Source: an uncultured Phycisphaeraceae bacterium
GTDB lineage: Bacteria; Planctomycetota; Phycisphaerae; UBA1845
Assembly (NCBI GenBank): GCA_964648365.1
Contig: CAZYLK010000001.1
Coordinates: forward strand, 762-64,761
Direction of reading: 5' to 3'
DNA length: 64,000 bases
In this document: one piece after another, positions 4,266 to 49,534 of the stretch
Numbering within the stretch: the stretch's first letter is position 1
How the letters are laid out: each line of letters opens with the position of its first letter
Notes under the pieces: model-generated
What the model saw: only the letters and a program-made list of their open reading frames with translations
Told to the model about the DNA's origin: nothing
Databases searched by the model: none
Program-made: the position numbers and the translations under genes

Positions 4266-5261
4266 CTAGTCGCCTTCGTCCGTTTCGCGACCGGCCATGA
4301 CCTCGCGGACCCGGTTGACCACCTGCGGCGAAGGGTCTGTTTCCAGGGCACGCACCGCAGACCACAGTTCCTCATCGTCGAGATGCGACACGGCGTCGAT
4401 CGCTGCGATCAGATGCTCGTCGATGCGCGCCGGCGGCATGGGCGACTCGACGATCTGCCCCGGGGCGCTCTCGATTCGCATCGTCACTTTCTCGGACCAG
4501 TAGCTGCGGTCCAGCATGTCGAGAAGCTCAGCCCGCCCGGCCGGGCTGCCCAGCCGCGCCAGCGACAGCGCGGCGTTCCAGATTACCTCGCGCTGGTCCT
4601 CGCTTCCCGTGCAGATCGCCGTGAGCGCCTCGACCGCTTCCGTGTCCGTCGGATCGGCGACAAACGAGAGGGCGTAGGCCGCCACGGTCCGTACCACCGG
4701 CTCCGGATCGTCCGCGGCCAGGCGGCAGATCGGCGTCAGCCCGGCGGCTCGGACGCCCGGCACCTCGTGCATGGACGCCAACGCCTGCACGGCGCTGCGG
4801 CGAATCTCCCACAGCGGGCATTCGAGGCATCGGACGACCGGTGCGACGGCCTCGGGTCGATCGGTTCGCGCCAAGGCCGCCAGGACGAATTCAAACTTCT
4901 GCACCCCGGTCTTGCCGAGTTCGCCGGCGGAGGCAAGCATCCGGTCGCACAGCGCGGTCAGGCGCTGAACGATCACATCCAGATCCGCCGGGCTGACCTC
5001 GACCTCCTTCTTGTCGAGACGCATGGCCAGTTCGCGGGCGGCCTGCCAGATTTCCTTGTCGCGCGGCATCAGGGCCACGTCGAGGAGTTTCTCGCCGTGC
5101 GGCGACTCCACCGCGGCGAGCAGCTCGGTCACGCTCTTGTCCTTCTCGGCACTGACGCGGCCGAAGAGGATGACTACGGTGATCGCCCCCCCGACGATCA
5201 GCGTGACGATCAGCAGCGGTACTCCGACCAGCTTGAGAACGACGGAACCGCCGGACGGCAT
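4266..5261 (-). CDS. HEAT-repeat protein with N-terminal TM helix
   Basis: From ORF 4266..5360. It contains repeated HEAT-like units (EIRRSAVQALASM, DPEPVVRTVAAYALSF, DPSPQVVNRVREVM). The start is uncertain: ATG 5261 gives the TM N-terminus MPSGGSVVLKLVGVPLLIV, while 5360 is a GTG. Confidence 0.6.
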   Translation of the reverse strand: MPSGGSVVLKLVGVPLLIVTLIVGGAITVVILFGRVSAEKDKSVTELLAAVESPHGEKLLDVALMPRDKEIWQAARELAMRLDKKEVEVSPADLDVIVQRLTALCDRMLASAGELGKTGVQKFEFVLAALARTDRPEAVAPVVRCLECPLWEIRRSAVQALASMHEVPGVRAAGLTPICRLAADDPEPVVRTVAAYALSFVADPTDTEAVEALTAICTGSEDQREVIWNAALSLARLGSPAGRAELLDMLDRSYWSEKVTMRIESAPGQIVESPMPPARIDEHLIAAIDAVSHLDDEELWSAVRALETDPSPQVVNRVREVMAGRETDEGD

Positions 5262-5448
5262 GTCGGTTGTTGGAGGTCTGTCGGCCACGTCGGATTTCCG
5301 CGGGGAGCGCGGAACCCCCCGGGAGGCGTCTCTGAGTCGCTGAATTATCGGTCGAGCCACCCGGCCCGGACGGTGACTTCGTGATTTTTTTCACAAAGTC
5401 GGCAGGATTGTAGGCGGCGGGTGCGCTGGCTGCAATAGTAGTGAGGAA

Positions 5449-5472
5449 AGGCACGAAGGCACGAAGGCACAG
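5449..5472. repeat. Short 8-bp tandem repeat AGGCACGA x3
   Basis: Read directly: aggcacgaaggcacgaaggcacag, upstream of the XRE gene. Confidence 0.7.
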
Positions 5473-5504
5473 AGGGAAAAGAATACGCACGGGGAGCCCT
5501 GAGT

Positions 5505-5831
5505 ATGGCCAAGAAACGCCCACCGACGACGGATGCCGTCGAAATCCTCGACCGCCGATACTTTCGGGATCATCCGGATCGCAATGGCGAGTTGGAGGTG
5601 GAGCGAGCGAACGCGGAAGTGGCACGGAAAGTCTTCGACCTGCGCAGTTCGGCAGGGCTGACGCAGGCGCAGCTTGCTCGCCGCGTCGGTACCACGGCGT
5701 CGGTGATCAGCCGGCTTGAGGACGCCGACTACGAGGGGCACTCACTGTCGATGCTTCGGCGGATTGCCGCTGCGCTGAATCGCCGCGTGGAGATTCGGTT
5801 CGTCCGGATCGGACGTGCTGTCCGAAGCTGA
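5505..5831 (+). CDS. XRE-family helix-turn-helix protein (antitoxin-like), no partner toxin visible
   Basis: 108-aa ORF with an HTH core LTQAQLARRVGTTASVISRLE. The C-terminal LSMLRRIAAALNRRVEIRF is typical of HigA/XRE antitoxin-like proteins. Confidence 0.7.
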   Translation: MAKKRPPTTDAVEILDRRYFRDHPDRNGELEVERANAEVARKVFDLRSSAGLTQAQLARRVGTTASVISRLEDADYEGHSLSMLRRIAAALNRRVEIRFVRIGRAVRS

Positions 5832-5848
5832 CGGCGTCGTCGGCGGCG

Positions 5849-7204
5849 CTACGCAGACCGATCCCCACCGATCACCGACCGTACCTGCGCGACGAGTTCC
5901 TCGGCCTGCTGCGTGGTCGCCGCTTCGGCGATCACCCGCATGATCGGCTCCGTGTTCGATGCCCGGACGTGGACCCATCGGTCGGGCCAGGCGATGCGGA
6001 TGCCGTCCACGTCGGAATAGTCTTCGTCCATGAACGCCTTCTTCACGGCCGTGATCGCGGCCGCGATACGCTCCCGGTCGCACGCGATTTTCTGCTTGAC
6101 CATGACGTAGCGGGGCATGTCGTCCACGATTGCGCTGAGCGGGCGCTTTTCGGCCGCCATCAGGTCCAGCGTCAACGCCATGGCGACCAGGCTGTCGCGC
6201 ACGCTGCCGACCCGCGGGTCGATGACGCCGCCATTGCCCTCGCCGCCGACGACGGCCTCGTGCTCCGCCATGGCGGCGACGACGTTGGCCTCGCCCACCG
6301 GCGTACGAATCACCCGGCTCCCGGACGCCGCGGTCGCGATGTCGTCCACCATGCGCGATGTCGAGAGGTTGACGACGATCGGACCCGGGTTCAGCGCGAC
6401 GATGCGGCGGGCCGCCAGCGCCAGGGTGTATTCCTCGCCGATGTAGCGACCGTTCTCGTCAATGATCGCCAGCCGGTCCGCGTCGGGATCCTGCACGAAG
6501 CCAACCGCGACCCCGGCCTCGCCGACCTTGCGGCTGACCGCAACCAGGTTCTCCTGCGTCGGCTCTGGCGATCGCGGGAAGGCGCCGGTCGGCTCGGCGT
6601 TCTGGTGCTGGACGTGGCAGCCGAGCGCGTCGAGCAGCGCCCGGCCCACGTGGCCGCCGACGCCGTTGACGCTGTCGAGATAGACGCGGAAGCGCTTCTC
6701 GCGGATGGCCGGCAGCGACACGGTGTCCAGCACGCGGGCGACGTGATGCTCGTCGGCGCCATCGTGGGTCGTGACCGCCCCGGTACGCTCCTCCGTCGCC
6801 TGTCGCGCGGCCGTGTCGTCCAGCAGTGCGAGGATAGCCTGGGCCGTGCCAGCGTCGGGTGCGGCGCCGTGGGACGTCAGGAACTTAATGCCGTTGTACT
6901 CGATGGGGTTGTGGCTGGCGGTGATGACGACGCCGCCGTCGGCGGCCAGTTCCGTCACCATGACGCCGATCGTCGGCGTGGTGGCCGGACCCAGGTCTAC
7001 GACGTCGATGCCGCCGGTGGTGAGGCCCTTCGTGACAGCCGCCTGGAAGAGCGGCCCGCTTTCGCGCGAGTCCCGCCCGACCACGACCTTGCCGCGGCCG
7101 CCGAGATAGGCCGCGAACGCGCGGCCGGCGTCCCGCGCAAGCGATTCGGTCAGCGTGTCTCCCACCACGCCGCGTATTCCGGAGACTCCCTTCATCAGAC
7201 TCAT
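5849..7204 (-). CDS. Phosphohexomutase (phosphoglucosamine/phosphomannomutase family)
   Basis: It has the active-site loop TASHNPIEYNGIKF, the metal site FVQDPDADRLAI and an N-terminus MSLMKGVSGIRGVVG. The start was set to ATG 7204 because upstream codons overlap a hairpin repeat. Confidence 0.85.
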   Translation of the reverse strand: MSLMKGVSGIRGVVGDTLTESLARDAGRAFAAYLGGRGKVVVGRDSRESGPLFQAAVTKGLTTGGIDVVDLGPATTPTIGVMVTELAADGGVVITASHNPIEYNGIKFLTSHGAAPDAGTAQAILALLDDTAARQATEERTGAVTTHDGADEHHVARVLDTVSLPAIREKRFRVYLDSVNGVGGHVGRALLDALGCHVQHQNAEPTGAFPRSPEPTQENLVAVSRKVGEAGVAVGFVQDPDADRLAIIDENGRYIGEEYTLALAARRIVALNPGPIVVNLSTSRMVDDIATAASGSRVIRTPVGEANVVAAMAEHEAVVGGEGNGGVIDPRVGSVRDSLVAMALTLDLMAAEKRPLSAIVDDMPRYVMVKQKIACDRERIAAAITAVKKAFMDEDYSDVDGIRIAWPDRWVHVRASNTEPIMRVIAEAATTQQAEELVAQVRSVIGGDRSA

Positions 7205-9643: not shown

Positions 9644-9675
9644 CATTCGTTATTCGCCATTCGCTATTCGCCATT
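9644..9675. repeat. Family B octamer array (GAATNNCG read on minus strand), 3 nt downstream of hypE stop
   Basis: The plus strand reads cattcgttattcgccattcgctattcgccatt. The minus sense reads aatggcgaatagcgaatggcgaataacgaatg. Confidence 0.9.
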
Positions 9676-9678
9676 TCC

Positions 9679-10728
9679 TCAACATATCCTCGGCAACTGC
9701 TCGCCGGCCAGCATCGCAACTACCCGCTCGCCGCCGATCAGCGACTTCAGCGTGACGATGCCGGGGTGATCGTTGACGACCTCGCCGATGTCGGCGGCGT
9801 CGCGGCCGAGCGGGTGGGAGCGCATCGCGGCCAGCACGGCCGCGGCATCGTCCGGCGGCACGATGGCAATGACCTTGCCTTCGTTGGCGACGTAGAGCGG
9901 GTCCAGCCCCAGCATCTCACAGGCGGCGCGGACTTCCGGCCGGATCGGCAGGGCCGACTCAACCAGTTTCATCCCCACCCGGGAGGCAGCGGCGATTTCG
10001 TTAAGCGCGCTGGAGACGCCGCCGCGCGTCGGATCGCGCATGCAATGAATGCGCGGCGACGCGGACAGCATCGCGCGGGTCAGTCCATTAAGAGCGGCGC
10101 TGTCGCTGAGAAGCTGCGTCTCGAACGAGATACCCTCGCGCACCGACATGATGGCGATGCCGTGATCGCCGAGTGTGCCGGAGACGAGGATGCGATCTCC
10201 GGGGCGGGCGTTTTTCGCGGAGATGGAAGGGCGATCGGTCGGGATGACGCCCAGGCCGGTGGTGGTGATGTAGACCTGATCGCCCTTGCCACGATCGACG
10301 ACCTTGGTATCCCCGGTGACCAGCGCCACGCCGGCCGTGCGGCAGGCGTCCTGCATCGACGCACAGATCCGCCGCAGATCGTCCAAGGCGAGTCCTTCTT
10401 CGAGGATGAACGCGGCCGCGATACAGATCGGCTCGGCGCCGCCGACCGCCAGGTCATTGATCGTGCCATGCACGGCCAGCGAGCCGATGTCGCCGCCGGG
10501 GAAGAAAATCGGCCGCACGACGAAGGAATCCGTCGTGATAGCAATACGCCCGCCGCGGGTGCCGAGCAGCGCAGGATCCAGCACGGCCTGATCCTCAAGT
10601 GCGTCGAGTACGGGATTACTGAAGGCCGGGAGGAACACTTTTTCCACAAGCTGCCGGCTGAGCGTCCCGCCGCTGCCGTGACCCAGCACGACAAACCGGT
10701 CCTGCGGCAACGGCGCGGGGCAGGTCAT
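9679..10728 (-). CDS. hypE: Hydrogenase maturation protein HypE
   Basis: The N-terminal part has VVLGHGSGG, the body is AIR-synthase-like, and the C-terminus is the diagnostic ...EQLPRIC. The start was set to ATG 10728; the ORF extends to 10800. Confidence 0.9.
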   Translation of the reverse strand: MTCPAPLPQDRFVVLGHGSGGTLSRQLVEKVFLPAFSNPVLDALEDQAVLDPALLGTRGGRIAITTDSFVVRPIFFPGGDIGSLAVHGTINDLAVGGAEPICIAAAFILEEGLALDDLRRICASMQDACRTAGVALVTGDTKVVDRGKGDQVYITTTGLGVIPTDRPSISAKNARPGDRILVSGTLGDHGIAIMSVREGISFETQLLSDSAALNGLTRAMLSASPRIHCMRDPTRGGVSSALNEIAAASRVGMKLVESALPIRPEVRAACEMLGLDPLYVANEGKVIAIVPPDDAAAVLAAMRSHPLGRDAADIGEVVNDHPGIVTLKSLIGGERVVAMLAGEQLPRIC

Positions 10729-10858
10729 AGATTCCAAGGGATTGGGGTCAGGCATATCAGGACTCACGGCAGAGTGTGATCCGCAGATCTCGTAGATCAA
10801 AGAAGCATAGTGGGCTCACTGATCGCGACGGTTACGCGCGGCGGCCACTGCTTCCCCT

Positions 10859-10891
10859 AATTCGTTATTCGCTATTCGCTATTCGCCATTC
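10859..10891. repeat. Family B octamer array overlapping the 3' end of hypD
   Basis: aattcgttattcgctattcgctattcgccattc. The hypD C-terminus ...GRMANSE and its TAG stop (10872-10874) are encoded by the array. Confidence 0.9.
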
Positions 10892-11972
10892 TGCCTCTAT
10901 ACTGATAATACGCCGCGCAAGCGCCCTCCGATGAAACCATCGTCGCGCCCAGCGGCGTCTGCGGCGTGCAGCGGGTTGCGAAGGCGGGGCACTCGTGTGG
11001 CTTGCGGATGCCCTGCAAGACCTGTCCGCTGATGCACTCGGCGGATTCTCGCACGGTCAGGCCGCTTACGCCGAATCGACGGCCGGCATCGTAGTCAGCG
11101 TACTCGGGGCGAAGGTGATAGCCGCTCATCGGGATCGATCCGATCCCGCGCCAGGTGCGATCGCCGATCTCGAAGACGTCGATGATCACGCGCAACGATT
11201 CGACGTTCGCCTCCCGACGCACGGCTCGGGCATACTGATTTTCGACGCCGACGCGACCCTCTTCTAACATGCACACGCATCGGTAGACCCCCTCCAGCAG
11301 GTCGAGCGGCTCGAAACCGGTCACGACGATCGGGATGTGAAACCGCTCCGCCAGCTCCTCATATTCAGTGAATCCCATAACGGTACACACGTGTCCGGCC
11401 GCCAGGAATGCCTGCACACGGTTAGTGGGAGATGAGAGGATCGCCGTGATGGCAGGCGGGACGAGCACGTGGGAGACGAGTACAGAGAAGTTCGTCAGTC
11501 CCAGCCGCTTCGCCTGCCACACGGCCATGGCATTGGCCGGTGCGGTCGTCTCGAAGCCGACGGCGAAGAATACGACGGACTTGTCCGGGTTCGTAGCCGC
11601 GATCTTCAAACAGTCCAGCGGCGAGTAGACGATGCGCACGTCGCCGCCGCCGGCCTTGACGCTGAGCAGATCGCCGCAGCTTCCCGGCACGCGCAGCATA
11701 TCGCCGTAGGAGCAGAAGATCACGTCCGGCCGGGCGGCGATGATCAGGGCCTGGTCGATCACCTCCAGCGGCGTGACGCACACCGGGCAGCCCGGCCCGT
11801 GGATGAGCGTGATCTGCCGCGGCAGCAGATCGTCGATGCCGTACTTGACGATTGTGTGCGTCTGCCCGCCGCAGACTTCCATGATCGCCCATGGCCGCGT
11901 GGTCTTGGCGTGGATCAATTCGCACAGTTGCTGCGCTGCCGCCGGGTCGCGATATTCGTCGAGATATTTCAT
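10872..11972 (-). CDS. hypD: Hydrogenase maturation protein HypD
   Basis: MKYLDEYRD..., [10 protein letters not shown] and [10 protein letters not shown] motifs are present. It has a 4-nt overlap with hypC. Confidence 0.92.
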
Positions 11973-12229
11973 GGCGCGTCCGGCTCGCCGTGGCGAAGTT
12001 CGTCGAGTTCGTTCATGGAATCAAGAAACGAAAAGACCAGCCCGGCTTCGTCCTCGTGTACACGCGACAGCGCAAAGCCGACGTGAACGATGGCGTATTC
12101 ACCGACTTCGAGGTCGGGCACGTGGGCGAGGCAGACGGACTTCGTAATCCCTCCGAAGTCCACCTTGCCCATCGGCAGGCCGTTCTCGTCGTACTTGGCC
12201 GTCAGTTTTCCGGGTATTCCGAGGCACAT
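11969..12229 (-). CDS. hypC: Hydrogenase maturation chaperone HypC
   Basis: [10 protein letters not shown]-terminus, 86 aa. The tracked ORF 11969..12589 is an artefactual 5' extension through a repeat array. Confidence 0.9.
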
Positions 12230-12242
12230 GGTTTGGCTTCGC

Positions 12243-12302
12243 GGGGAGTCAGAGAGAATAGGGAGTAAGGGAACAAGGGAGTAAGGGAGTAAGGGAAGAA
12301 GG
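12243..12302. repeat. Family A octamer array between hypF stop and hypC start
   Basis: ggggagtcagagagaatagggagtaagggaacaagggagtaagggagtaagggaagaagg. In the hyp (minus) sense it reads as TTACTCCC units ending 13 nt before the hypC ATG. Confidence 0.9.
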
Positions 12303-12585
12303 CATCGGCTTCTTTGTATGAGAAGTATGCAGTTGGGAACGCCTGGCCGTCCTGTCGTGAGTTTCCCGCAAGAAGAACAGGTCGATATAAGCGGCAATGT
12401 GCATTGCCCCGAAGGGGCTGAACATGCCAGCCCAGGGCAACGCCCTGGGTGAGCGTGGCCCGTGAGGAGCCAGCCCTGTAAGGGCGACACATCGCTGTCG
12501 CGGCCCGTTCGGGGCGGCGCGCTGCGGGGCGGGTGCAGCTCGGGGAAGCGTGTTCTTGGTTGGTACACCTCGGCGTGGTCATATC

Positions 12586-15336
12586 TCATCCCGATTGCAG
12601 GGCCACGTCCTTCGCTGCTACCGCCGCTGCAATGGCAAGCTGGCCCAGGCTCAGGCCGCCGTCGTTGGGGGGAACCTGGCGATGGCGGATGACGCGGAAT
12701 CCGTCGCGTTGAAGCCGCGCCGTCGCCCCTTCCAGCAGCAAAACGTTCATGAACACTCCCCCGCTGAGGGCCACCAGGCTAACGCCGGTCTGCGCACGCA
12801 GCCGCCCACACACGTCGACGATCAGTTCGACCAGCGTGGCGTGGAACCGGCGGGCGATCACGGCCGGGTCCACCGATGCCCGCACGGCGCACAGGACGTT
12901 GCGGATCAGCGGGCGGGTGTCGATGATCATAGGCGCGTCAGAATGATCAGGCTGTCGGTCCGCCGCCGCGGGCGTGACGGCGTACGCGTAGGCATCATCG
13001 GGCTGTTGTGCTACCGCCGATCCGCCATGTCCGCGGAGTGACACCGAGTTCGAGCCGGTGGAATCACGGGCTGGAAGCCCGTGCCACACCGCCTCGTTCG
13101 GGCTGCCGTTTAGCGGCGGTGTGGACGCCGCCCATTCCAATTCGATGGCGGCCTGTCCCTCATACGCGGCCGTCTGGCGAATGCCGGCCAGCGCCGCCAC
13201 GGCATCGAACAGGCGGCCCATGCTGGACGTAAGTGGTGCATTGATGCGCTGCCGGATCATCCGCTCGATCACGCTCAGCTTCTGTCGCGACACGTGCCGC
13301 TGGAGCGCCTCGCAAAAGCCGACCGCGTCGATCAGATGCGCGGCGGCCATGCGCCAGGGCTCATGGATCGCCTGCTCGCCGCCGGGCATGGGCACGTAGC
13401 GCAGATGCGCCGCGCGACGGAAGCTGGACAAATCGCCGACCAGAAACTCGCCGCCCCAGACCGCGCCGTCTAGGCCGTAGCCGGTTCCGTCGAAGATCAC
13501 CCCAATGGCCGTCTCGGTCGATCCGTTCTCCGCCAGGCAACTCGCGAGGTGGGCGTGATGGTGCTGCACGGCGAGCCGCCGCGGCGTGCGGTTTGCGAGC
13601 GTCGGTCCCTGCAAATCCGCGCGGGCACAAGCCCGCGGCTCGCTTGAATTGCCGGATTCGCATCGCTGCAGCGCGTATCGCGTGGTCGCGTAGTCCGGGT
13701 GCAGGTCGTGCACGAGCAGCGCCGGCTGAATGTCGAAGAACCGCTCGAAGTCGTCGATGGCCTGCGTGTAGGCTCGAAACGCAGAGAAGTCGTCCAGGTC
13801 GCCGCCGTGGTGGCTGAGCATCGCCTGATGGCCGGCGCCCAGCGCGAACGTCGCTTTTAACTGCCCGCCGACGGCCAGGATGGGGATGCGGCAGTCGCTC
13901 GGCAGCGACAGCGGCTGCGGCACGTACCCCCGCGAGCGCCGCAGGATCAGCGGCGCCCCGCCGGTGACGCGGACGATCGAGTCGTCGCAGCGGCGGTGGA
14001 TCGGCCGGTCGTGCGTCAGCAGCAGATCGGCCAGACCGGCGAAGCGTTGGCGGGCGTCGGAGTCCTCGTAGGCGATCGGCTCGTCGGACAGGTTTCCGCT
14101 GGTCATCACCAGCGGCGTGCCGTCCATCTCGGCCATGAGCAGATGGTGCAGCGGTGTATACGGCAGCATCACGCCCAGCAGCGGATTACCCGGCGCGACG
14201 GCATCGGCGATGGGGTATACAAGCGAGCCGCGGGCTTCAGCCCGCGCGGATTCCCGGCACGGAAAACCCGTCCCGTTCGCAATCGACACGCCCTTACGGA
14301 GCGCAACGTCGCCCACTGACGCCGACGCCAAATCCAGCCCCGGCCGCAGAATGCCGAGTGTGGTTGCTGGAACGAGTGGAGAGCCAAACGAGTCAGGTGA
14401 CGCGGAGTTTCGCCGAACGTCCGCGCGGGCTGAAGCCCGCGGCTCGCTTTCGCTCGTGAGTTCTTCTGCATGGCCGGATCGCCGCTTCAGCAGCACGATC
14501 GGTCGGCGCACATCCTCCAGCAGCCGCGCCTCATCGTACGACACCTCGCAGATCGCCTCGGCCGCGGCCAGATCGCGGACCATGATCGCGAACGGCTTTT
14601 CCTCGCGATGCTTGCGGCCGCGGAGCCTCTCAACGGCGGCTCCGTCCGACGCCAGGCAGGCGAGGTGATAGCCGCCCAGCCCTTTGATCGCCACGATGGC
14701 GCCGCGGCGCAGGGATTCGGCCGCGGCGCGCAGCGGGTCATCTGTGGCTGCCGCGGTACCGTCGGGGGTCTCAAGCGCCAGTCGCGGCCCGCACACCGGG
14801 CAGGCGGTCGGCTCGGCGTGAAAGCGGCGGTTGGCCGGATCCTCATATTCCCGGCGGCAGGCGTCGCACATGTCGAACCGCGACATCGTTGTCTGCGCGC
14901 GGTCGTAAGGGACGCCGGTGATGATCGTCAGCCGCGGTCCGCAATGGGTGCAATTCAAGAACGGGTAGCGATAGCGGCGGTCGGCCGGGTCGAAGAGTTC
15001 GGTCAGACATTCCGGGCACGTCGCCACGTCGGCCGGTACGGACACGCGCGACCCGCCGTCCGGTTCGCTGGCGACGATCTCAAATGCCCGGTCGTGTTGC
15101 GGCGGGCAGTCCTGCCACTCAACCCGGTCGATGCGGGCCAGCGGCGGGAGACGATCCGTCAACGCTTGTTGGAACCGGCTCAGGGTGGCGGCCGCGCCCT
15201 CGACTTGGATGAGTACGTGCGAGCCTTCGTTGCGCACGAAGCCGGTCAGGCCAAGCTGTGAGGCAACACGGTGGACGAAGGGGCGGAACCCGATCCCCTG
15301 CACCAGACCCGTGACTTTGGCACTTCGCCGGACCAT
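12586..15336 (-). CDS. hypF: Carbamoyltransferase HypF, enlarged by in-frame repeat-derived insertions
   Basis: Acylphosphatase N-terminus VTGLVQGIGFRPFV. Two zinc-finger pairs (CPECLTELFDP...CTHCGPR; CDACRREYEDP...CPVCGPR). YrdC-like and Kae1-like parts (GVMLPYTPLHHLL, VQHHHAHLAS). The start was set to ATG 15336. The product is 916 aa versus about 750 aa in E. coli HypF. Confidence 0.9.
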   Translation of the reverse strand: MVRRSAKVTGLVQGIGFRPFVHRVASQLGLTGFVRNEGSHVLIQVEGAAATLSRFQQALTDRLPPLARIDRVEWQDCPPQHDRAFEIVASEPDGGSRVSVPADVATCPECLTELFDPADRRYRYPFLNCTHCGPRLTIITGVPYDRAQTTMSRFDMCDACRREYEDPANRRFHAEPTACPVCGPRLALETPDGTAAATDDPLRAAAESLRRGAIVAIKGLGGYHLACLASDGAAVERLRGRKHREEKPFAIMVRDLAAAEAICEVSYDEARLLEDVRRPIVLLKRRSGHAEELTSESEPRASARADVRRNSASPDSFGSPLVPATTLGILRPGLDLASASVGDVALRKGVSIANGTGFPCRESARAEARGSLVYPIADAVAPGNPLLGVMLPYTPLHHLLMAEMDGTPLVMTSGNLSDEPIAYEDSDARQRFAGLADLLLTHDRPIHRRCDDSIVRVTGGAPLILRRSRGYVPQPLSLPSDCRIPILAVGGQLKATFALGAGHQAMLSHHGGDLDDFSAFRAYTQAIDDFERFFDIQPALLVHDLHPDYATTRYALQRCESGNSSEPRACARADLQGPTLANRTPRRLAVQHHHAHLASCLAENGSTETAIGVIFDGTGYGLDGAVWGGEFLVGDLSSFRRAAHLRYVPMPGGEQAIHEPWRMAAAHLIDAVGFCEALQRHVSRQKLSVIERMIRQRINAPLTSSMGRLFDAVAALAGIRQTAAYEGQAAIELEWAASTPPLNGSPNEAVWHGLPARDSTGSNSVSLRGHGGSAVAQQPDDAYAYAVTPAAADRQPDHSDAPMIIDTRPLIRNVLCAVRASVDPAVIARRFHATLVELIVDVCGRLRAQTGVSLVALSGGVFMNVLLLEGATARLQRDGFRVIRHRQVPPNDGGLSLGQLAIAAAVAAKDVALQSG
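13065..13087. repeat. H3-type hairpin (CACGGGCTGGAAGCCCGTGCCAC) inside hypF coding sequence
   Basis: Read directly. It shares the gaatcacggg...cccgtgccac frame with the intergenic copies at 15399-15421 and 15467-15489. Confidence 0.8.
13616..13641. repeat. H4-type hairpin (TCCGCGCGGGCACAAGCCCGCGGCTC) inside hypF coding sequence
   Basis: Read directly. It is translated as ...SSEPRACARAD... in HypF. Confidence 0.85.
14225..14445. repeat. MITE-like 221-bp segment bounded by inverted H4 hairpins (14225-14250 and 14420-14445) inside hypF
   Basis: gagccgcgggcttcagcccgcgcgga at the left end and its reverse complement tccgcgcgggctgaagcccgcggctc at the right end. The whole segment stays in frame in HypF. 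Confidence 0.8.
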
Positions 15337-15367
15337 CGCATCACAGTCCACCAGCAGGATGCCGGAG

Positions 15368-15489
15368 CACCGGTTGAAAACCGGTGCCACAAGAGAATCA
15401 CGGGCAAGATGCCCGTGCCACACGTGCCACACAGACGCCGGTTGCAAACCGGTGCCACAGGAGAATCACGGGCAAGATGCCCGTGCCAC
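15368..15489. repeat. Duplicated composite hairpin unit [H1 + H3] x2 between hypB stop and hypF start
   Basis: The four modules are caccggttgaaaaccggtgccac (15368-15390), cacgggcaagatgcccgtgccac (15399-15421), ccggttgcaaaccggtgccac (15438-15458) and cacgggcaagatgcccgtgccac (15467-15489). Confidence 0.9.
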
Positions 15490-18495: not shown

Positions 18496-18777
18496 GTCAT
18501 AGGCTCCGGGGCGACCACCGTCGGCCTTTCCCATTGTAGCAAACCCGAGCCCTCAAGGTGACCGAAGGCCCGGTGCGTTTCGACGTGGTCGGATCGTGAC
18601 GATGAGGCTCGACGGCGCAGCGTCCCGCTCGTGCCTCTCGGGCATGGCGGTGGGAACGCGGAAACGATGGGGGCTTCCGACGGCGCGGCCGGCGGGGTAG
18701 ACTAGGCGTATGAGTTTTCACTGGGCATTTGATGCAGGGACTCACCACGCGGGTGAATGCTCAACCGAGGCGGAATC

Positions 18778-19008
18778 ATGGACTGGCGGAAACGAATCGT
18801 AGTAGACCCGGCCATCCTCGTCGGGAAGCCGGTGATCAAGGGGACACGAATCAGCGTGGAACTGGTGGTGGACTTGCTGGCGCGCGGATACACGATACAG
18901 GATGTGCTCCGACAGTATCCGCACATAACAGCGGAGGACGTACAGGCGTGCCTTGCGTACGCCAGCTACGTGCTGCGTTCGGAACGGGTCTACGCCCACC
19001 CCGCATGA
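18778..19008 (+). CDS. DUF433-type antitoxin
   Basis: MDWRKRIVVDPAILVGKPVIKGTRISVELVVDLLARGYT is the typical DUF433 signature. A DUF5615-like gene starts 12 nt downstream. Confidence 0.8.
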   Translation: MDWRKRIVVDPAILVGKPVIKGTRISVELVVDLLARGYTIQDVLRQYPHITAEDVQACLAYASYVLRSERVYAHPA

Positions 19009-19019
19009 TGAGGTGACGA

Positions 19020-19394
19020 ATGCGGTTCCTCGCGAACGAGAACTTTCCCGGCCCGGTGGTGGAGGCGCTCCGCAGTCGTGGCGAAGACGTGAGTTGGATC
19101 GCCCAGGAATCGCCTGGCGCTCGCGACGATGTTGTCTTGGCGCGGGCTCAGATGGAACAACGAATTCTGGTGACCTTTGACAAGGATTTCGGCGAGTTGG
19201 CGTTCAGGTCGCGCCTTCCCGCCGCATCTGGAGTCGTACTGTTTCGGCTCAACGGTGCCAGTCCGTCTGAAGACAATGCGCGGGCGTTGTCGGCGCTCGC
19301 CGAGCGACTGGACTGGGCCGGTCACTTCGCCGTCGTGCATGACGATCGCATTCGCATGCGACCCCTGCCGCACCTGCAGAATGAGGATCCTTGA
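19020..19394 (+). CDS. DUF5615-type PIN-like toxin
   Basis: MRFLANENFP...VLARAQMEQRILVTFDKDFGEL matches the pattern of Mut7-C/PIN-like partners of DUF433. Confidence 0.75.
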   Translation: MRFLANENFPGPVVEALRSRGEDVSWIAQESPGARDDVVLARAQMEQRILVTFDKDFGELAFRSRLPAASGVVLFRLNGASPSEDNARALSALAERLDWAGHFAVVHDDRIRMRPLPHLQNEDP

Positions 19395-21049: not shown

Positions 21050-21469
21050 TTATTCGAACTCCTCGCAGTGCCACACGCCGCCTTCAGGACGGGGGTATGT
21101 GCAACTGTCGCGCTTGACGCAGGTGGCGCACAGCCCGCGAGCCCGCGATTCGGCGCCGAGTTCGAGCTGCGACGCCGCGATCGGCTCCGACCGCCGCATG
21201 GCGACCGGCGCCTGAATGCCGTCGAACTCGTCACAGAAGATCACCGGCCGGACGGCGCCGAGTCGATAGGTACAGGTCCGCGCCAGCGTGCAGCTTATGC
21301 ACAAGCCGCGCGGCACGTCCGGTTCGGGTCGCGTGCTACGGCGCTCCTCGGACGCGGCCGGCGACGTGGACGGGGCCGGTGCGGCGGGCGCCGTCTCCCG
21401 CGGGCGATCCGCCGGGCTGACCCGTTTCCGGTGGATGACAGTCGTTGCTTGAGTCTTCGGGTCGTACAT
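21050..21469 (-). CDS. Small protein with two copies of a 4-Cys motif (GLCxxCxxxxxCTY...C[DE]EF[DE]), function unknown
   Basis: 139-aa ORF. The two copies are RGLCISCTLARTCTYRLGAVRPVIFCDEFD and RGLCATCVKRDSCTYPRPEGGVWHCEEFE. GGAGG lies 7 nt before the ATG. Confidence 0.6.
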   Translation of the reverse strand: MYDPKTQATTVIHRKRVSPADRPRETAPAAPAPSTSPAASEERRSTRPEPDVPRGLCISCTLARTCTYRLGAVRPVIFCDEFDGIQAPVAMRRSEPIAASQLELGAESRARGLCATCVKRDSCTYPRPEGGVWHCEEFE

Positions 21470-21560: not shown

Positions 21561-21834
21561 CGGGGGAAGGGGTGATAAACGCATCCGTGCCGCGAACGGC
21601 GGCAGGCGGGTTAACGCCTTGAATTGAAGCAGGTTACGAGCGCGCGCCCGTTTGCGATGCTGCGCGAGACTGCGATGCCGAATGGCTGGGAAGGCGGGGC
21701 GAAATGTACCGGCGGGGAGTAGCGCACCGCGCGGCGTTCGCGCGATGGCTCAGCGGATCAGGTCGACTTCTAACGGCCGGCCCGTACCCGTCCTCGCGTG
21801 GAACCTCGCTACCCGTCCGCGGCCGACCGCTGCC

Positions 21835-22248
21835 TCATGACAGAGCAGACGCCGTTGGTACGAAGCTCGTCACCGCGGCGATCTCCTGCGCGATCGACTT
21901 CTGCGCCGGCTTGTCGCCGGGCCAGCCGGATACATCGGCGTGGTTCGGGTTGCCCTCGATGGGCGCCGCTCTGACAACGAGTTGATGCTTCAAGCAGACA
22001 GCGGTACGAAAGTCGCCCCGCCCATAGAGGGTCCTGCCTCTCGCCCCGGCGATTTGCTGTCCTACCGACCAAACTTCGGCGTCGGTCGCGAGGATGTGCC
22101 GGGTAACGGACAGATCCGTGTGAGGATGGGGGATGAACGCATCGGGCTTCAGGGTCTGATCGCTGCCGCGAATGTGGCTTCGCTGAAGGACGTATCGCGC
22201 CAACAACTCATCGCTTCCCACATCAGGTACGTTCGCCGGGTCGATCAT
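21835..22248 (-). CDS. Hypothetical protein, third gene of overlapping three-gene cassette
   Basis: The start ATG 22248 overlaps the upstream stop (ATGA). The 137-aa sequence runs MIDPANVPDVGSDELLARYVLQRSHIR...NPNHADVSGWPGDKPAQKSIAQEIA. I cannot name a family. Confidence 0.6.
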   Translation of the reverse strand: MIDPANVPDVGSDELLARYVLQRSHIRGSDQTLKPDAFIPHPHTDLSVTRHILATDAEVWSVGQQIAGARGRTLYGRGDFRTAVCLKHQLVVRAAPIEGNPNHADVSGWPGDKPAQKSIAQEIAAVTSFVPTASALS

Positions 22249-22697
22249 GCGGCGTAGACCCTCTGGATCAACTCGATGATCTCTGTGGGAACGTCGCCAA
22301 AGAAGACTTGTGTCCCGTAGACTCGATTGGGTCCGATCAACGCGGCGAAGTGCAGTTCGTCGTCGGGACTGACGCTCACGGACAGCGTTCGGCGGGCCGA
22401 CCGATGCCACTCAAATGTAATCTCGCCGTCCGGCTCGGCGCCGACTGAGGGAGCGGGATAGCCAAGCGGGAATGATTCGAGGAAGAGATACGCATTTCGC
22501 AACGCGCAGGGCGCGACGGGAAGCGCATCGTGGCCATCCCAGTTCGGCTCGCGACATTCCTCCCAGACGGTCCCCAACTCATCTCGGAGTGCGCTCGCGA
22601 TGCCGAACACGTTTGACGTGTGTAGTTCACGGCGACTGAGCCGCGTGGAATCCTCAACGTACTGCGCCGCGTCACTGAATCCACAAGTATATATCAT
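22245..22697 (-). CDS. Hypothetical protein, second gene of three-gene cassette
   Basis: 150-aa ORF with ATGA overlaps at both ends. It contains EPNWDGHDALPV and PDGEITFEW segments. I cannot name a family. Confidence 0.6.
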   Translation of the reverse strand: MIYTCGFSDAAQYVEDSTRLSRRELHTSNVFGIASALRDELGTVWEECREPNWDGHDALPVAPCALRNAYLFLESFPLGYPAPSVGAEPDGEITFEWHRSARRTLSVSVSPDDELHFAALIGPNRVYGTQVFFGDVPTEIIELIQRVYAA

Positions 22698-23455
22698 TGC
22701 TTCTGTCGCTTGAACGAGTTAATCGCCGCTTTGCTCATGAGGCTGAAGAACGCCTTGTTCTTGAACCATCTCATCTTGGGCAGTAGCTCCTGTAGGATAC
22801 CATCGTCCGGCGGAAATCCACGCGTCGTGAACACATCGATGTCAACGATCAGTCCGACTCCGCCACTTCCTGGAGGGACCGGTGGTTGGATCGCCTGCAC
22901 AACCTTGATTCGCAGGGGCTCATTCGGAATGTCGTGCAGACTCTGATACAAGAAACTGCTTAGCGGCAGTCCCAAGGGCTCCAGGCACTGTGGCGGCGAC
23001 GCGAGACTGCGAGCCACCGCAGGCAGCTCGATCGGGAGGACGCGATTGATGAACCTTACGCCGAGCCTCTGGATCTCGGTAGGTTGGGCCAACTCCAAGA
23101 AGACCCGCCAGACGCGCTGGCCTTCTGCGGCGAAAGCGTCCCAGCGCTCGTAGGGCGTCAGTCGGCTGAATGCCACGCCGTCCCGTGTAAACTGGACGAT
23201 CTGCCGGCCATCCTCCGAGGTCAGCCGAAGTCCGTGCCCGGTATCGCGCCGAAGAACCGTCGAAGCAGACTCGCCTTCTAGCTGTGCCTGGAACTCGAGG
23301 TAATGCTGGGGTTGGCACTTAGGATACTCCGGAAGGCGCCGAGTGAGTAGTTCCTGTAGTTCGTGCGGCTGCAGCGATCTCGCCGCCCTCGCTCGCCAGT
23401 GAATAACGGCCTCGACTATCGGCGCGGCGGTCAGATTGGGAAAGGTCTCAGCCAT
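22694..23455 (-). CDS. TIGR04255-like uncharacterised protein, first gene of three-gene cassette
   Basis: MAETFPNLTAAPIVEAVIHWRARA..., Y.RW.AF and RLGVRFINRV segments resemble the TIGR04255 family pattern. This rests on recollection, not a search. The start was set to ATG 23455. Confidence 0.55.
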   Translation of the reverse strand: MAETFPNLTAAPIVEAVIHWRARAARSLQPHELQELLTRRLPEYPKCQPQHYLEFQAQLEGESASTVLRRDTGHGLRLTSEDGRQIVQFTRDGVAFSRLTPYERWDAFAAEGQRVWRVFLELAQPTEIQRLGVRFINRVLPIELPAVARSLASPPQCLEPLGLPLSSFLYQSLHDIPNEPLRIKVVQAIQPPVPPGSGGVGLIVDIDVFTTRGFPPDDGILQELLPKMRWFKNKAFFSLMSKAAINSFKRQKQ

Positions 23456-23662
23456 GTCGAGTTTGAACTTCGGAACTCGCGAACGCGAGGTACGGCCGGC
23501 CGTGCTCGCCCCCACCGTTCGTGTCCGGCGCCTGTCCCCTGCCGCCTGTCGTGCCGGGCGCTTCCCCATCGTCGATTCTCTACTGGCCATCGTCGTATCA
23601 TAGCCTTATCGGGAACTCCGCTCCAACGCGCTGACCGCGTCATCGATCAGGCGCGCTTCCAG

Positions 23663-33896: not shown

Positions 33897-33937
33897 CATT
33901 CGACATTCGCCATTCGCCATTCGCCATTCGCCATTCA
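33897..33937. repeat. Family B octamer array 2 nt downstream of rpoD stop
   Basis: The plus strand reads cattcgacattcgccattcgccattcgccattcgccattca. The minus sense reads GAATGGCG units. Confidence 0.9.
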
Positions 33938-44279: not shown

Positions 44280-44563
44280 CGAATGTCGAATAGCGAATAA
44301 CGAATGAAGCTCGCGCCGGTGCAGCGATCCTTCAGAACGGGGAGCGTAAACGACCGGCTGCGGAGGAATGTCGAATGTCGAATGAAGAGCAAATCGGAGC
44401 GGAGCGGCGCTATCCGGGCCGGAGCCGGAGACCACTGACAGAGGAAATGGGGATCGAGAATGGAGCCGTCTGACGCTGGAGCAGCATGTTCGTCTTCTCT
44501 GCATTCGACATTCGACATTCGCCATTCGACATTGAACCTTAGCCATTCGCCATTCGACATTCC
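44275..44563. repeat. Family B octamer arrays: forward 44275-44309 and 44366-44387, reverse complement 44502-44562
   Basis: The forward arrays read aatagcgaatgtcgaatagcgaataacgaatgaag and gaatgtcgaatgtcgaatgaag. The reverse array reads cattcgacattcgacattcgccattcgacatt..agccattcgccattcgacattcc. The vWA stop TAG (44277-44279) lies in the first unit. Confidence 0.9.
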
Positions 44564-49504: not shown

Positions 49505-49534
49505 CGAATAGCGAATGGCGAATAACGAATGAAG
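49500..49534. repeat. Family B octamer array spanning a stop codon and the argH start codon
   Basis: aatagcgaatagcgaatggcgaataacgaatgaag. The TAG at 49502-49504 ends the upstream gene, and the ATG at 49529-49531 (unit GAATGAAG) starts argH. Confidence 0.9.

Follow-up and report, generated by a model that had tools for sequence, protein, structure and literature searches.

We have analysed a cassette of three minus-strand genes, here called g1, g2 and g3 in the order in which they are read, in a stretch of 64,000 nucleotides from an uncultured Phycisphaeraceae bacterium (GenBank assembly GCA_964648365.1, contig CAZYLK010000001.1, positions 762 to 64,761; the whole stretch is called the window). 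This cassette is real, conserved, mobile and uncharacterised, and it is a candidate for a tripartite toxin-antitoxin or defence system made of three undescribed families. We favour a toxin-antitoxin-like reading as a defence or addiction system because the genes are small and coupled, the cassette is sporadically mobile and is found embedded in restriction-modification (R-M) loci, the middle protein is acidic, g3 is enzyme-like, and a constant g1 stands over interchangeable pairs of partners. In its full form, namely that the cassette is a horizontally mobile three-component toxin-antitoxin-like module serving as abortive-infection or phage defence, we consider the chances for and against this reading to be evenly balanced.

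Conservation and mobility of the cassette

A preliminary description of the window had reported three minus-strand reading frames with ATGA overlaps at both junctions and had taken this as the mark of an obligate stoichiometric module. The reading frames and the overlaps are confirmed in the sequence (Table 1), and the start codons of g2 and g3 each overlap the preceding stop codon by 4 nt. An overlap of 4 nt is common in operons and is by itself no proof of obligate stoichiometry; what exceeds chance is the conservation of this overlap across loci. An alignment of g3 was scanned against one genome per species (185,579 genomes), giving 129 relatives, and 80 loci were kept, of which 73 had enough upstream sequence to be evaluated (L020, L136, P0201 and the like are working labels of related loci). 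In 71 of these 73 loci, g1, g2 and g3 are present in that order, and they come from at least eight phyla. The hosts include Planctomycetota, Cyanobacteriota, Nitrospirota, Hydrogenedentota, Beta-, Gamma- and Zetaproteobacteria, Desulfuromonadales, Acidobacteriota and Opitutales (Verrucomicrobiota), among others. The junction between g2 and g3 measures -4 nt in 31 of 68 related loci and falls within -17 to +15 nt in 63 of them, and the junction between g1 and g2 measures -4 nt in 20 of the 68. The triad is a real unit. The preliminary description would have given way if the triad were scattered in other genomes or if its proteins matched ordinary families; the triad is kept together, and none of the three proteins matched an ordinary metabolic or structural family in searches of Pfam, NCBIfam, PHROG and PDB.

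The supposition that the cassette was acquired horizontally is supported by its composition, by its relatives and by the genes with which it travels. The triad is the lowest-GC 1.6 kb of the 64-kb window, as the earlier remark on a GC content below that of the neighbours had suggested: its GC content is 0.606 against a window mean of 0.662 (standard deviation 0.022), a value as low as this occurring in 0.16% of equal-sized windows. The GC content at third codon positions (GC3) is 0.69-0.73 in the triad genes and 0.82-0.90 in gdhA, the response regulator and the histidine kinase. The spread of the cassette is sporadic, with 129 hits among the species genomes in the pattern scan. Some identities across phyla exceed those within a phylum, g3 being 56% identical to a Thermostichus copy and 47-50% identical to some Limnoglobus and Pirellula copies; horizontal transfer is therefore indicated. 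At five loci (L036, L039, L052, L067 and L070) a type I R-M system holds the triad between its hsdS and hsdR genes. The hsdM genes of these systems, which belong to Burkholderiales, a cyanobacterium, Zetaproteobacteria and Chromatiales, share 69-77% identity, and since these groups are unrelated, the R-M genes and the triad move together. Judged from these identities, the composite of R-M genes and triad appears itself to have been transferred horizontally.

The surroundings of related loci also suggest a role in conflict or defence, as had been proposed in the preliminary description. At L088 and L089 the triad lies inside a DUF1156-DUF499-SNF2 (MADS-like) system beside a DUF433-DUF5615 pair (L088: 2840-11794), so that at L088 two small modules are inserted within one large defence operon. 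At L008, a 68%-identical DUF499 gene follows immediately downstream of the triad. The 139 genes that directly adjoin the triad at 45 loci belonged most often to the Pfam families ResIII, DEAD, N6_Mtase, Methylase_S, HsdM_N, SWI2_SNF2, GmrSD_N and HNH; of the PADLOC families, type I R-M subunits and mad2/mad5 were the most frequent. Most triads, that of the window included, do not adjoin an R-M system. Carriage by prophages or viruses is occasional: the L083 variant adjoins phage portal and terminase genes, and on L181, a contig from IMG/VR, a triad variant stands beside open reading frames (ORFs) for membrane proteins that look holin-like by eye. At L172 (194-2937), a triad variant in the record of a Ralstonia P2-like phage (Ralstonia phage YO139_2, UNVERIFIED_ORG) is followed by an ORF that looks PAAR-like by eye, and because of this ORF the record may include host DNA beyond the end of the prophage. 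Together with the R-M and MADS-like embedding and the weak links of some relatives to the candidate defence system PDC-M32, which are described below, these settings support a role in conflict or defence.

Modularity and the properties of the three proteins

The Acidobacteriaceae contig L058 carries two TIGR04255-led triads 5 kb apart (4653-6369 and 10755-12369), one of the window type and the other divergent, with 27% identity in g1. A metagenome scan seeded with the divergent TIGR04255 paralogue found there returned 80 loci. Downstream of TIGR04255, the second gene varies strictly together with the third, and there are at least five types of pair besides that of the window. The window-type pair accounts for 43 second genes and 34 third genes, and a pair whose third protein is a DUF7689 Cys-His protein (Pfam 2e-43) for eight and four, respectively. 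A pair of 'NWDSYG' g2-like and 'PSFxRS…CYAHTEIHC' g3-like proteins is represented by four second and four third genes. For a pair with a g3-like 'LSVYRQ…GHAAI' protein there are two second genes and one complete third gene that could be clustered (L113). A 174-aa 'SCDL' protein marks another pair, whose two third genes form one cluster and whose short second genes are singletons. A further variant has a membrane protein downstream of the TIGR04255 gene, and on a Crinalium plasmid the TIGR04255 gene is followed by yet another pair of partners. Among the partner proteins of the other cassette types, DUF7689 is the sole family recognised, and no mention of TIGR04255 or DUF7689 was found in the literature.

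The association of g1 with the second protein is visible in loci where the arrangement is altered. At L136 (1053-2084), one ORF of 343 aa joins a TIGR04255 domain and a g2-like domain in a single protein, and the start of a g3-like gene comes next. Pairs of g2 and g3 are found without g1 at L020, L043 and L083; g2 is missing its first ~35 residues at L020 and L083 and has a different N-terminus at L043. At P0201, on a contig of 903 nt that is too short to show g1, the N-terminal ~35 residues of g2 are replaced by an AF2212-like domain (PF01954, E 4.3e-10). The N-terminus of the L043 g2 looks like a ribbon-helix-helix (RHH) domain by eye, an assignment that Pfam does not support. The loss or replacement of the g2 N-terminus in loci without g1 and the fusion at L136 are correlative. 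Because the pairs co-vary, because g1 and the second protein are fused at L136 and because g1-less loci exist, we conclude that g1 is a constant component, that the second and third proteins are a cognate pair, and that g1 would be functionally tied to the second protein.

Close homologues of the three proteins, at 45-78% identity, number 539 for g1, 642 for g2 and 502 for g3; they come mostly from Planctomycetota metagenomes, and none is functionally named. The resemblance of g1 to TIGR04255, noted earlier from the sequence, proved to extend over its whole length: residues 8-249 align with profile positions 2-252 of 252 of the NCBIfam model (E 4.3e-35, 121.7 bits, cutoff 30). The AlphaFold model of g1 (predicted local distance difference test, pLDDT, 89) shows two beta-alpha-beta4-alpha repeats of the type found in the TATA-binding protein (TBP). 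Foldseek accordingly returned many TBP chains (probability 0.97-0.99, E 1e-3 to 7e-3), with template modelling (TM) scores of only 0.28-0.40 and a root-mean-square deviation (rmsd) of at least 12 A, and S-adenosylmethionine decarboxylase (AdoMetDC) and its prozyme matched slightly better (E 3e-4). RnlA was absent from the top 50 fold matches of g1. The invariant residues of g1 are mostly aromatic or structural (F5, W20, Y44, W105 and W116), and the family is near neutral, with a median isoelectric point (pI) of 6.27.

The middle protein g2 is distinctly acidic, with a pI of 4.6 in the window and of 4.6-5.6 (median 4.86) in its family, while g1 and g3 are near neutral. Its family has 22 invariant columns and the motifs NWDG and GAEPDGxLTLEW, and none of its homologues carries a Pfam domain except one fusion. 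Sequence and profile searches of Pfam, NCBIfam, PHROG, PADLOC and PDB gave no significant match for g2. In the triads the g2 gene stands directly upstream of the g3 gene. The segments NWDGHDALPV, LSVTRH and NPNHADVSGWP, which had been picked out in the preliminary description, are present and lie on the most conserved columns of the g2 and g3 families.

Clustered at 50% identity, the g3 family comprises 2,626 representatives (E <= 1e-3). The AlphaFold model of g3 (pLDDT 95) is compact, with a core of alternating beta strands and alpha helices. Just two residues, R18 on strand 1 and H103 on strand 5, are invariant in an alignment that covers the superfamily as a whole; S47 on strand 2 and G76 are kept in at least 90%. 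This R-S-H pattern occupies the places on strands 1, 2 and 5 where ADP-ribosyltransferases (ARTs) carry [H/R]-[Y/S]-[E/Q/D]. A Foldseek search of PDB with g3 gave its best fold matches at E >= 1 throughout. KptA/Tpt1 occurs among them five times, with 9ldi as the top match (E 1.1, probability 0.60, TM 0.50) and with 6e3a, 8tg6 and 1wfx as further entries; the others are MbcT, AvrPphF-ORF2 and NarE. In the viral library BFVD, RNA 2'-phosphotransferase ranks third among the fold matches. Profile searches of PDB with g3 were empty, and no significant match was found in Pfam, NCBIfam, PHROG or PADLOC. Since sequence profiles give no support, we keep 'ART-like' for the g3 model as a lead and not as a statement of membership.

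The cassette and its surroundings in the window

The features of the window that concern the cassette, together with other features of note, are collected in Table 1. The flanks agree with those named in the preliminary description (gdhA on one side and a two-component system on the other). Downstream of the triad, past an ORF of 139 aa, lies a Glu/Leu/Phe/Val dehydrogenase gene (Pfam 6.7e-72), and the upstream ORFs resemble a sigma-54-type response regulator and a histidine kinase, as judged by reading their translations. No sigma-70-like promoter site was found in the spacer upstream of g1, and a search around the cassette for direct or inverted repeats at its flanks, for a promoter and for a terminator gave nothing above chance. 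A tRNA that might serve as an integration site was sought, and the sole tRNA of the window is 23 kb from the triad. No second triad was found in the 64 kb.

Table 1. Coordinates of the cassette and of other features in the window
Feature	Position	Strand	Remark
g1	22694..23455	minus	TIGR04255-family protein, 253 aa counted from the ATG at 23455
g2	22245..22697	minus	acidic, 150 aa, family undescribed; proposed to neutralise g3 or to serve as its adaptor
g3	21835..22248	minus	137-aa protein of an undescribed family, proposed effector or toxin
ATGA overlap, g1 stop and g2 start	22694..22697	minus	reads gcaATGAtat (22697-22694)
ATGA overlap, g2 stop and g3 start	22245..22248	minus	reads gcATGAtcg (22248-22245)
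Spacer between response-regulator gene and g1	23456..23662	minus	presumed promoter and possible true start of g1, by position only
Low-GC islet matching the cassette	21800..23500		from GC and GC3 computation
139-aa ORF between g3 and dehydrogenase gene	21050..21469	minus	Cys-rich, repeated C-x2-C…C-T-Y motif, no Pfam match
DUF433 gene	18757..19008	plus	Pfam 1.3e-25
DUF5615/PIN-like gene	19020..19394	plus	Pfam 5e-23
hypE-, hypD- and hypF-like genes	9679..15447	minus	hydrogenase maturation, from reading of translations only

The start codon of g1 is uncertain from the alignment of its homologues, which begin ~10 residues earlier (MKxxxxFxLDL); in the window the corresponding KFKLD is retained ahead of the ATG at 23455. 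Other starts in the same frame on the minus strand are GTG at 23515, ATG at 23569 and ATG at 23590, and starts in this range (23456-23590) would add an Arg-rich extension unseen in the homologues. The 139-aa ORF next to g3 was rejected as a fourth component, as it is otherwise found only in a contig with an identical cassette, apparently from the same genome. The DUF433 and DUF5615 genes form a pair 2.5 kb from the triad, beyond the dehydrogenase gene; their GC3 is 0.70-0.74, low like that of the triad, and a pair of the same type adjoins the L088 triad. This pair is probably a second acquired toxin-antitoxin-like module. Elsewhere in the window, the heptamer CGAATG[G/T] or its complement is repeated a few times in tandem in each of six intergenic stretches (9651-9670, 33897-33937, 44280-44292, 44365-44384, 44502-44563 and 49505-49524), with 17 matches to a 13-mer against 0.18 expected by shuffling. 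The putative hydrogenase maturation genes lie in a slightly GC-poor stretch and are unrelated to the triad.

Proposed mode of action and alternative explanations

In the mechanism that we propose, g3 would be the effector and would arrest growth by modifying or cutting a target in the cell that bears phosphate, most likely a nucleic acid. It might use NAD+ in the manner of ADP-ribosyltransferase-fold enzymes such as Tpt1/KptA. This chemistry, namely an ART fold with a possibly NAD+-dependent, phosphate-directed modification of nucleic acid, is suggested by the predicted fold, and we hold it tentatively, as something less probable than its opposite. The acidic g2, whose translation is coupled to that of g3, would be the cognate neutraliser that keeps g3 inactive. 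As the constant component, g1 would act through g2 by stabilising or licensing it and would probably be the sensor; when g1 is lost or diverted, for example by a phage product, g3 would be set free.

Several ART-fold proteins are toxins of toxin-antitoxin or defence systems, and PrrC is an anticodon nuclease embedded in type I R-M operons. Like PrrC, the triad is found in the gap between hsdS and hsdR, at no fewer than five loci, where it travels with the R-M genes, although it has no sequence or domain relation to PrrC. To the known ART-fold proteins Tpt1/KptA, MbcT/RES, DarT and NarE, g3 bears a weak likeness in that it is small and has an alternating beta/alpha core with residues conserved on strands 1, 2 and 5 (R18, S47 and H103 in g3). 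The adjacent, co-oriented and tightly coupled small genes, with ATGA overlaps conserved in related loci, resemble type II toxin-antitoxin operons; unlike those, g2 and g3 show no match to a toxin or antitoxin family or to a DNA-binding domain in Pfam, NCBIfam, PADLOC or PDB, and only the relative P0201 has the AF2212-like fusion.

The closest functional analogy may be the toxin-antitoxin-chaperone (TAC) system CmdTAC (PD-T4-9), in which a SecB-like chaperone protects the antitoxin until a phage capsid protein titrates the chaperone and the ADP-ribosyltransferase toxin is released (PMC11618068). The toxin of CmdTAC is a divergent ADP-ribosyltransferase that was recognised by weak fold similarity only (Foldseek rmsd 6.9 A to exotoxin A), and TAC systems combine a constant partner with variable toxin-antitoxin pairs (PMC11618068). 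On the one hand, the window cassette likewise has three small, co-transcribed genes with a constant component and variable pairs, and the functional logic that we propose would be the same. On the other hand, no component is homologous: g1 is a TBP-type double repeat and not SecB-like, the window order is constant partner, neutraliser and then effector, and the g2 segment that depends on g1 is apparently N-terminal, in contrast to the C-terminal chaperone-addiction tail of CmdTAC. The three window proteins gave no match to PD-T4-9/CmdTAC in PADLOC. A precedent for TBP-type domains in toxin-antitoxin-based defence is given by RnlA/LsoA (rnlAB, lsoAB), as some HEPN effectors of the RNase LS/RnlA family in this anti-phage toxin-antitoxin system carry a fused TBP-like domain (PMC3710099). 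In RnlA/LsoA, however, the TBP-like domain is part of the effector and the antitoxin is small and separate, whereas g1 is a protein of its own and the proposed effector is not HEPN.

Relatives of the cassette also resemble PDC-M32, a two-gene, unvalidated candidate of PADLOC. PDC-M32B is matched by the g3-like third gene of L113 (E 3e-4). In the L136 fusion the g2-like part, and that part only, matches positions 259-329 of the 375 of PDC-M32A (E 1.8e-6). The window g2 matches the same region of PDC-M32A marginally (E 0.072, above the significance limit of E <= 0.01), which is the sole PADLOC output for the three window proteins; g1 and g3, by contrast, have no match to PDC-M32 even at E <= 10. 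PDC-M32A is a single protein of 375 residues whose N-terminal ~250 residues are not detectably TIGR04255. In the sole paper found, PDC-M32 is only listed as a candidate, with no published mechanism (PMC12429752).

A number of results weigh against the toxin-antitoxin-like reading. None of the window proteins has a significant match (E <= 0.01) among the PADLOC, PHROG and Pfam models of toxins, antitoxins and defence proteins. In g3, R18 and S47 fit the transferase triad, but the strand-5 residue is the invariant histidine and not Glu, Gln or Asp, that is, neither acidic nor an amide. The ART-fold resemblance of the g3 model is weak, with matches at E >= 1, and membership of g3 in the Tpt1/KptA family, which has the catalytic tetrad R-H-R-R, is rejected: hhalign of the superfamily profile against a nine-member KptA alignment (E. 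coli KptA and eight plasmid homologues) gave a probability of 0.2%, and g3 profiles against E. coli KptA alone gave 0.2-0.3%. The near-neutral g3 is not basic. The similarity of the g1 model to TBP lies in repeat topology only, and g1 has neither a SecB match in Pfam nor SecB among its fold matches, which are TBP and AdoMetDC instead. Housekeeping genes are the neighbours at many loci, including the window. A phage origin of the close family is rejected, as no g3 relative was found in IMG/VR or on plasmids (PLSDB); the relatives that do occur are distant ones of g1, confined to a single plasmid, a single phage record and a single viral contig. The absence of the close family fits a host gene and gives no direct link to phages. 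Two loci depart from the unit. L026 (1-616, a Nitrospirae metagenome-assembled genome, MAG) has a g3 homologue and no g2 in the 226 nt upstream, and at L003 (2430-2870, a Planctomycetia MAG) g2 has a deletion of ~45 nt and a frameshift while g3 is intact.

These results give room to other explanations. The gene order would fit a regulator-antitoxin-toxin operon of the omega-epsilon-zeta type, in which g1 is a DNA-binding autorepressor acting through a TBP-like saddle, with no role as chaperone or sensor. TBP-type repeats are classical binders of nucleic acids, with precedents in RNase HIII and RnlA (PMC3710099), and the g2 of g1-less loci can carry another N-terminal domain, as in the RHH-like segment seen by eye at L043. 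We consider this explanation unlikely, considering that the g1 family is not basic, that no helix-turn-helix or RHH domain was detected, that the upstream sequence in the window shows neither a conserved inverted repeat nor an operator, that the TM scores to TBP are low and that the L043 segment is without Pfam support. A role in nucleic-acid repair or modification is quite improbable in our view; here g3 would act like Tpt1 on damaged RNA or DNA ends, with g1 as a binder of duplexes or hybrids and g2 as an adaptor. Placement in R-M loci is known for RNA-directed enzymes too (PrrC), Tpt1/KptA is the best fold match of g3, and g3 is not basic and was once found alone (L026); in addition, TBP-like domains bind RNA-DNA hybrids in RNase HIII (PMC3710099). 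Against such a role, g3 has no sequence-profile relation to Tpt1, there are no ligase, kinase or phosphatase partners, and the interchangeable and unrelated third genes (DUF7689 Cys-His, membrane protein and others) suggest effectors and not one repair chemistry.

As the largest protein and the sole constant component across cassette types, g1 could itself be the active effector or essential core, with g2 and g3 as its variable regulators or specificity factors. We regard this as very unlikely: g2-g3 pairs persist without g1 at three loci, PDC-M32-like relatives carry the g2-like domain on a different N-terminal part, and no conserved cluster of polar residues in g1 stands out as catalytic. 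Neither this explanation nor the one based on repair accounts for the modularity and for the pairs without g1 as well as the toxin-antitoxin-like reading does. The housekeeping flanks and the lack of a match to known defence models are also what an ordinary lineage-specific operon for stress or metabolism, unrelated to conflict, would present. To this explanation we give the slightest probability of the four, since it would have to accommodate the sporadic spread across phyla (~129 species among 185,579 genomes), the atypical composition, the repeated embedding in R-M and MADS systems, and modular, variable partners with no metabolic domains.

If the toxin-antitoxin-like reading is wrong, we are left with a conserved and well-delimited operon without an assigned function, and such operons are common in environmental genomes. 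If it is right, the cassette would be one member of a widespread system in which all three roles are taken by families without a described function, and it would represent a second solution, not based on SecB, to the logic of toxin-antitoxin-chaperone systems. The broader lead is that TIGR04255 genes head a family of modular three-gene cassettes. In its widest form, this lead would make TIGR04255 proteins the mark of a large and as yet unrecognised class of immunity or addiction systems built of three modular genes. In such systems a protein of TBP fold, and not a SecB-like chaperone, would be the constant sensor or stabiliser that controls interchangeable inhibitor-effector pairs (the R-S-H enzyme, the DUF7689 Cys-His protein, the 'SCDL' protein and the membrane protein among them), and g3 would found a new, minimal ART-like toxin clade whose catalytic Glu is replaced by His; we put this forward as possible and not as probable. 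The toxin-antitoxin-like reading, if right, would also give a role to TIGR04255, a family known only by number, and would provide a set of new small effector domains, one of which may be a new NAD+-dependent modifier of nucleic acids.

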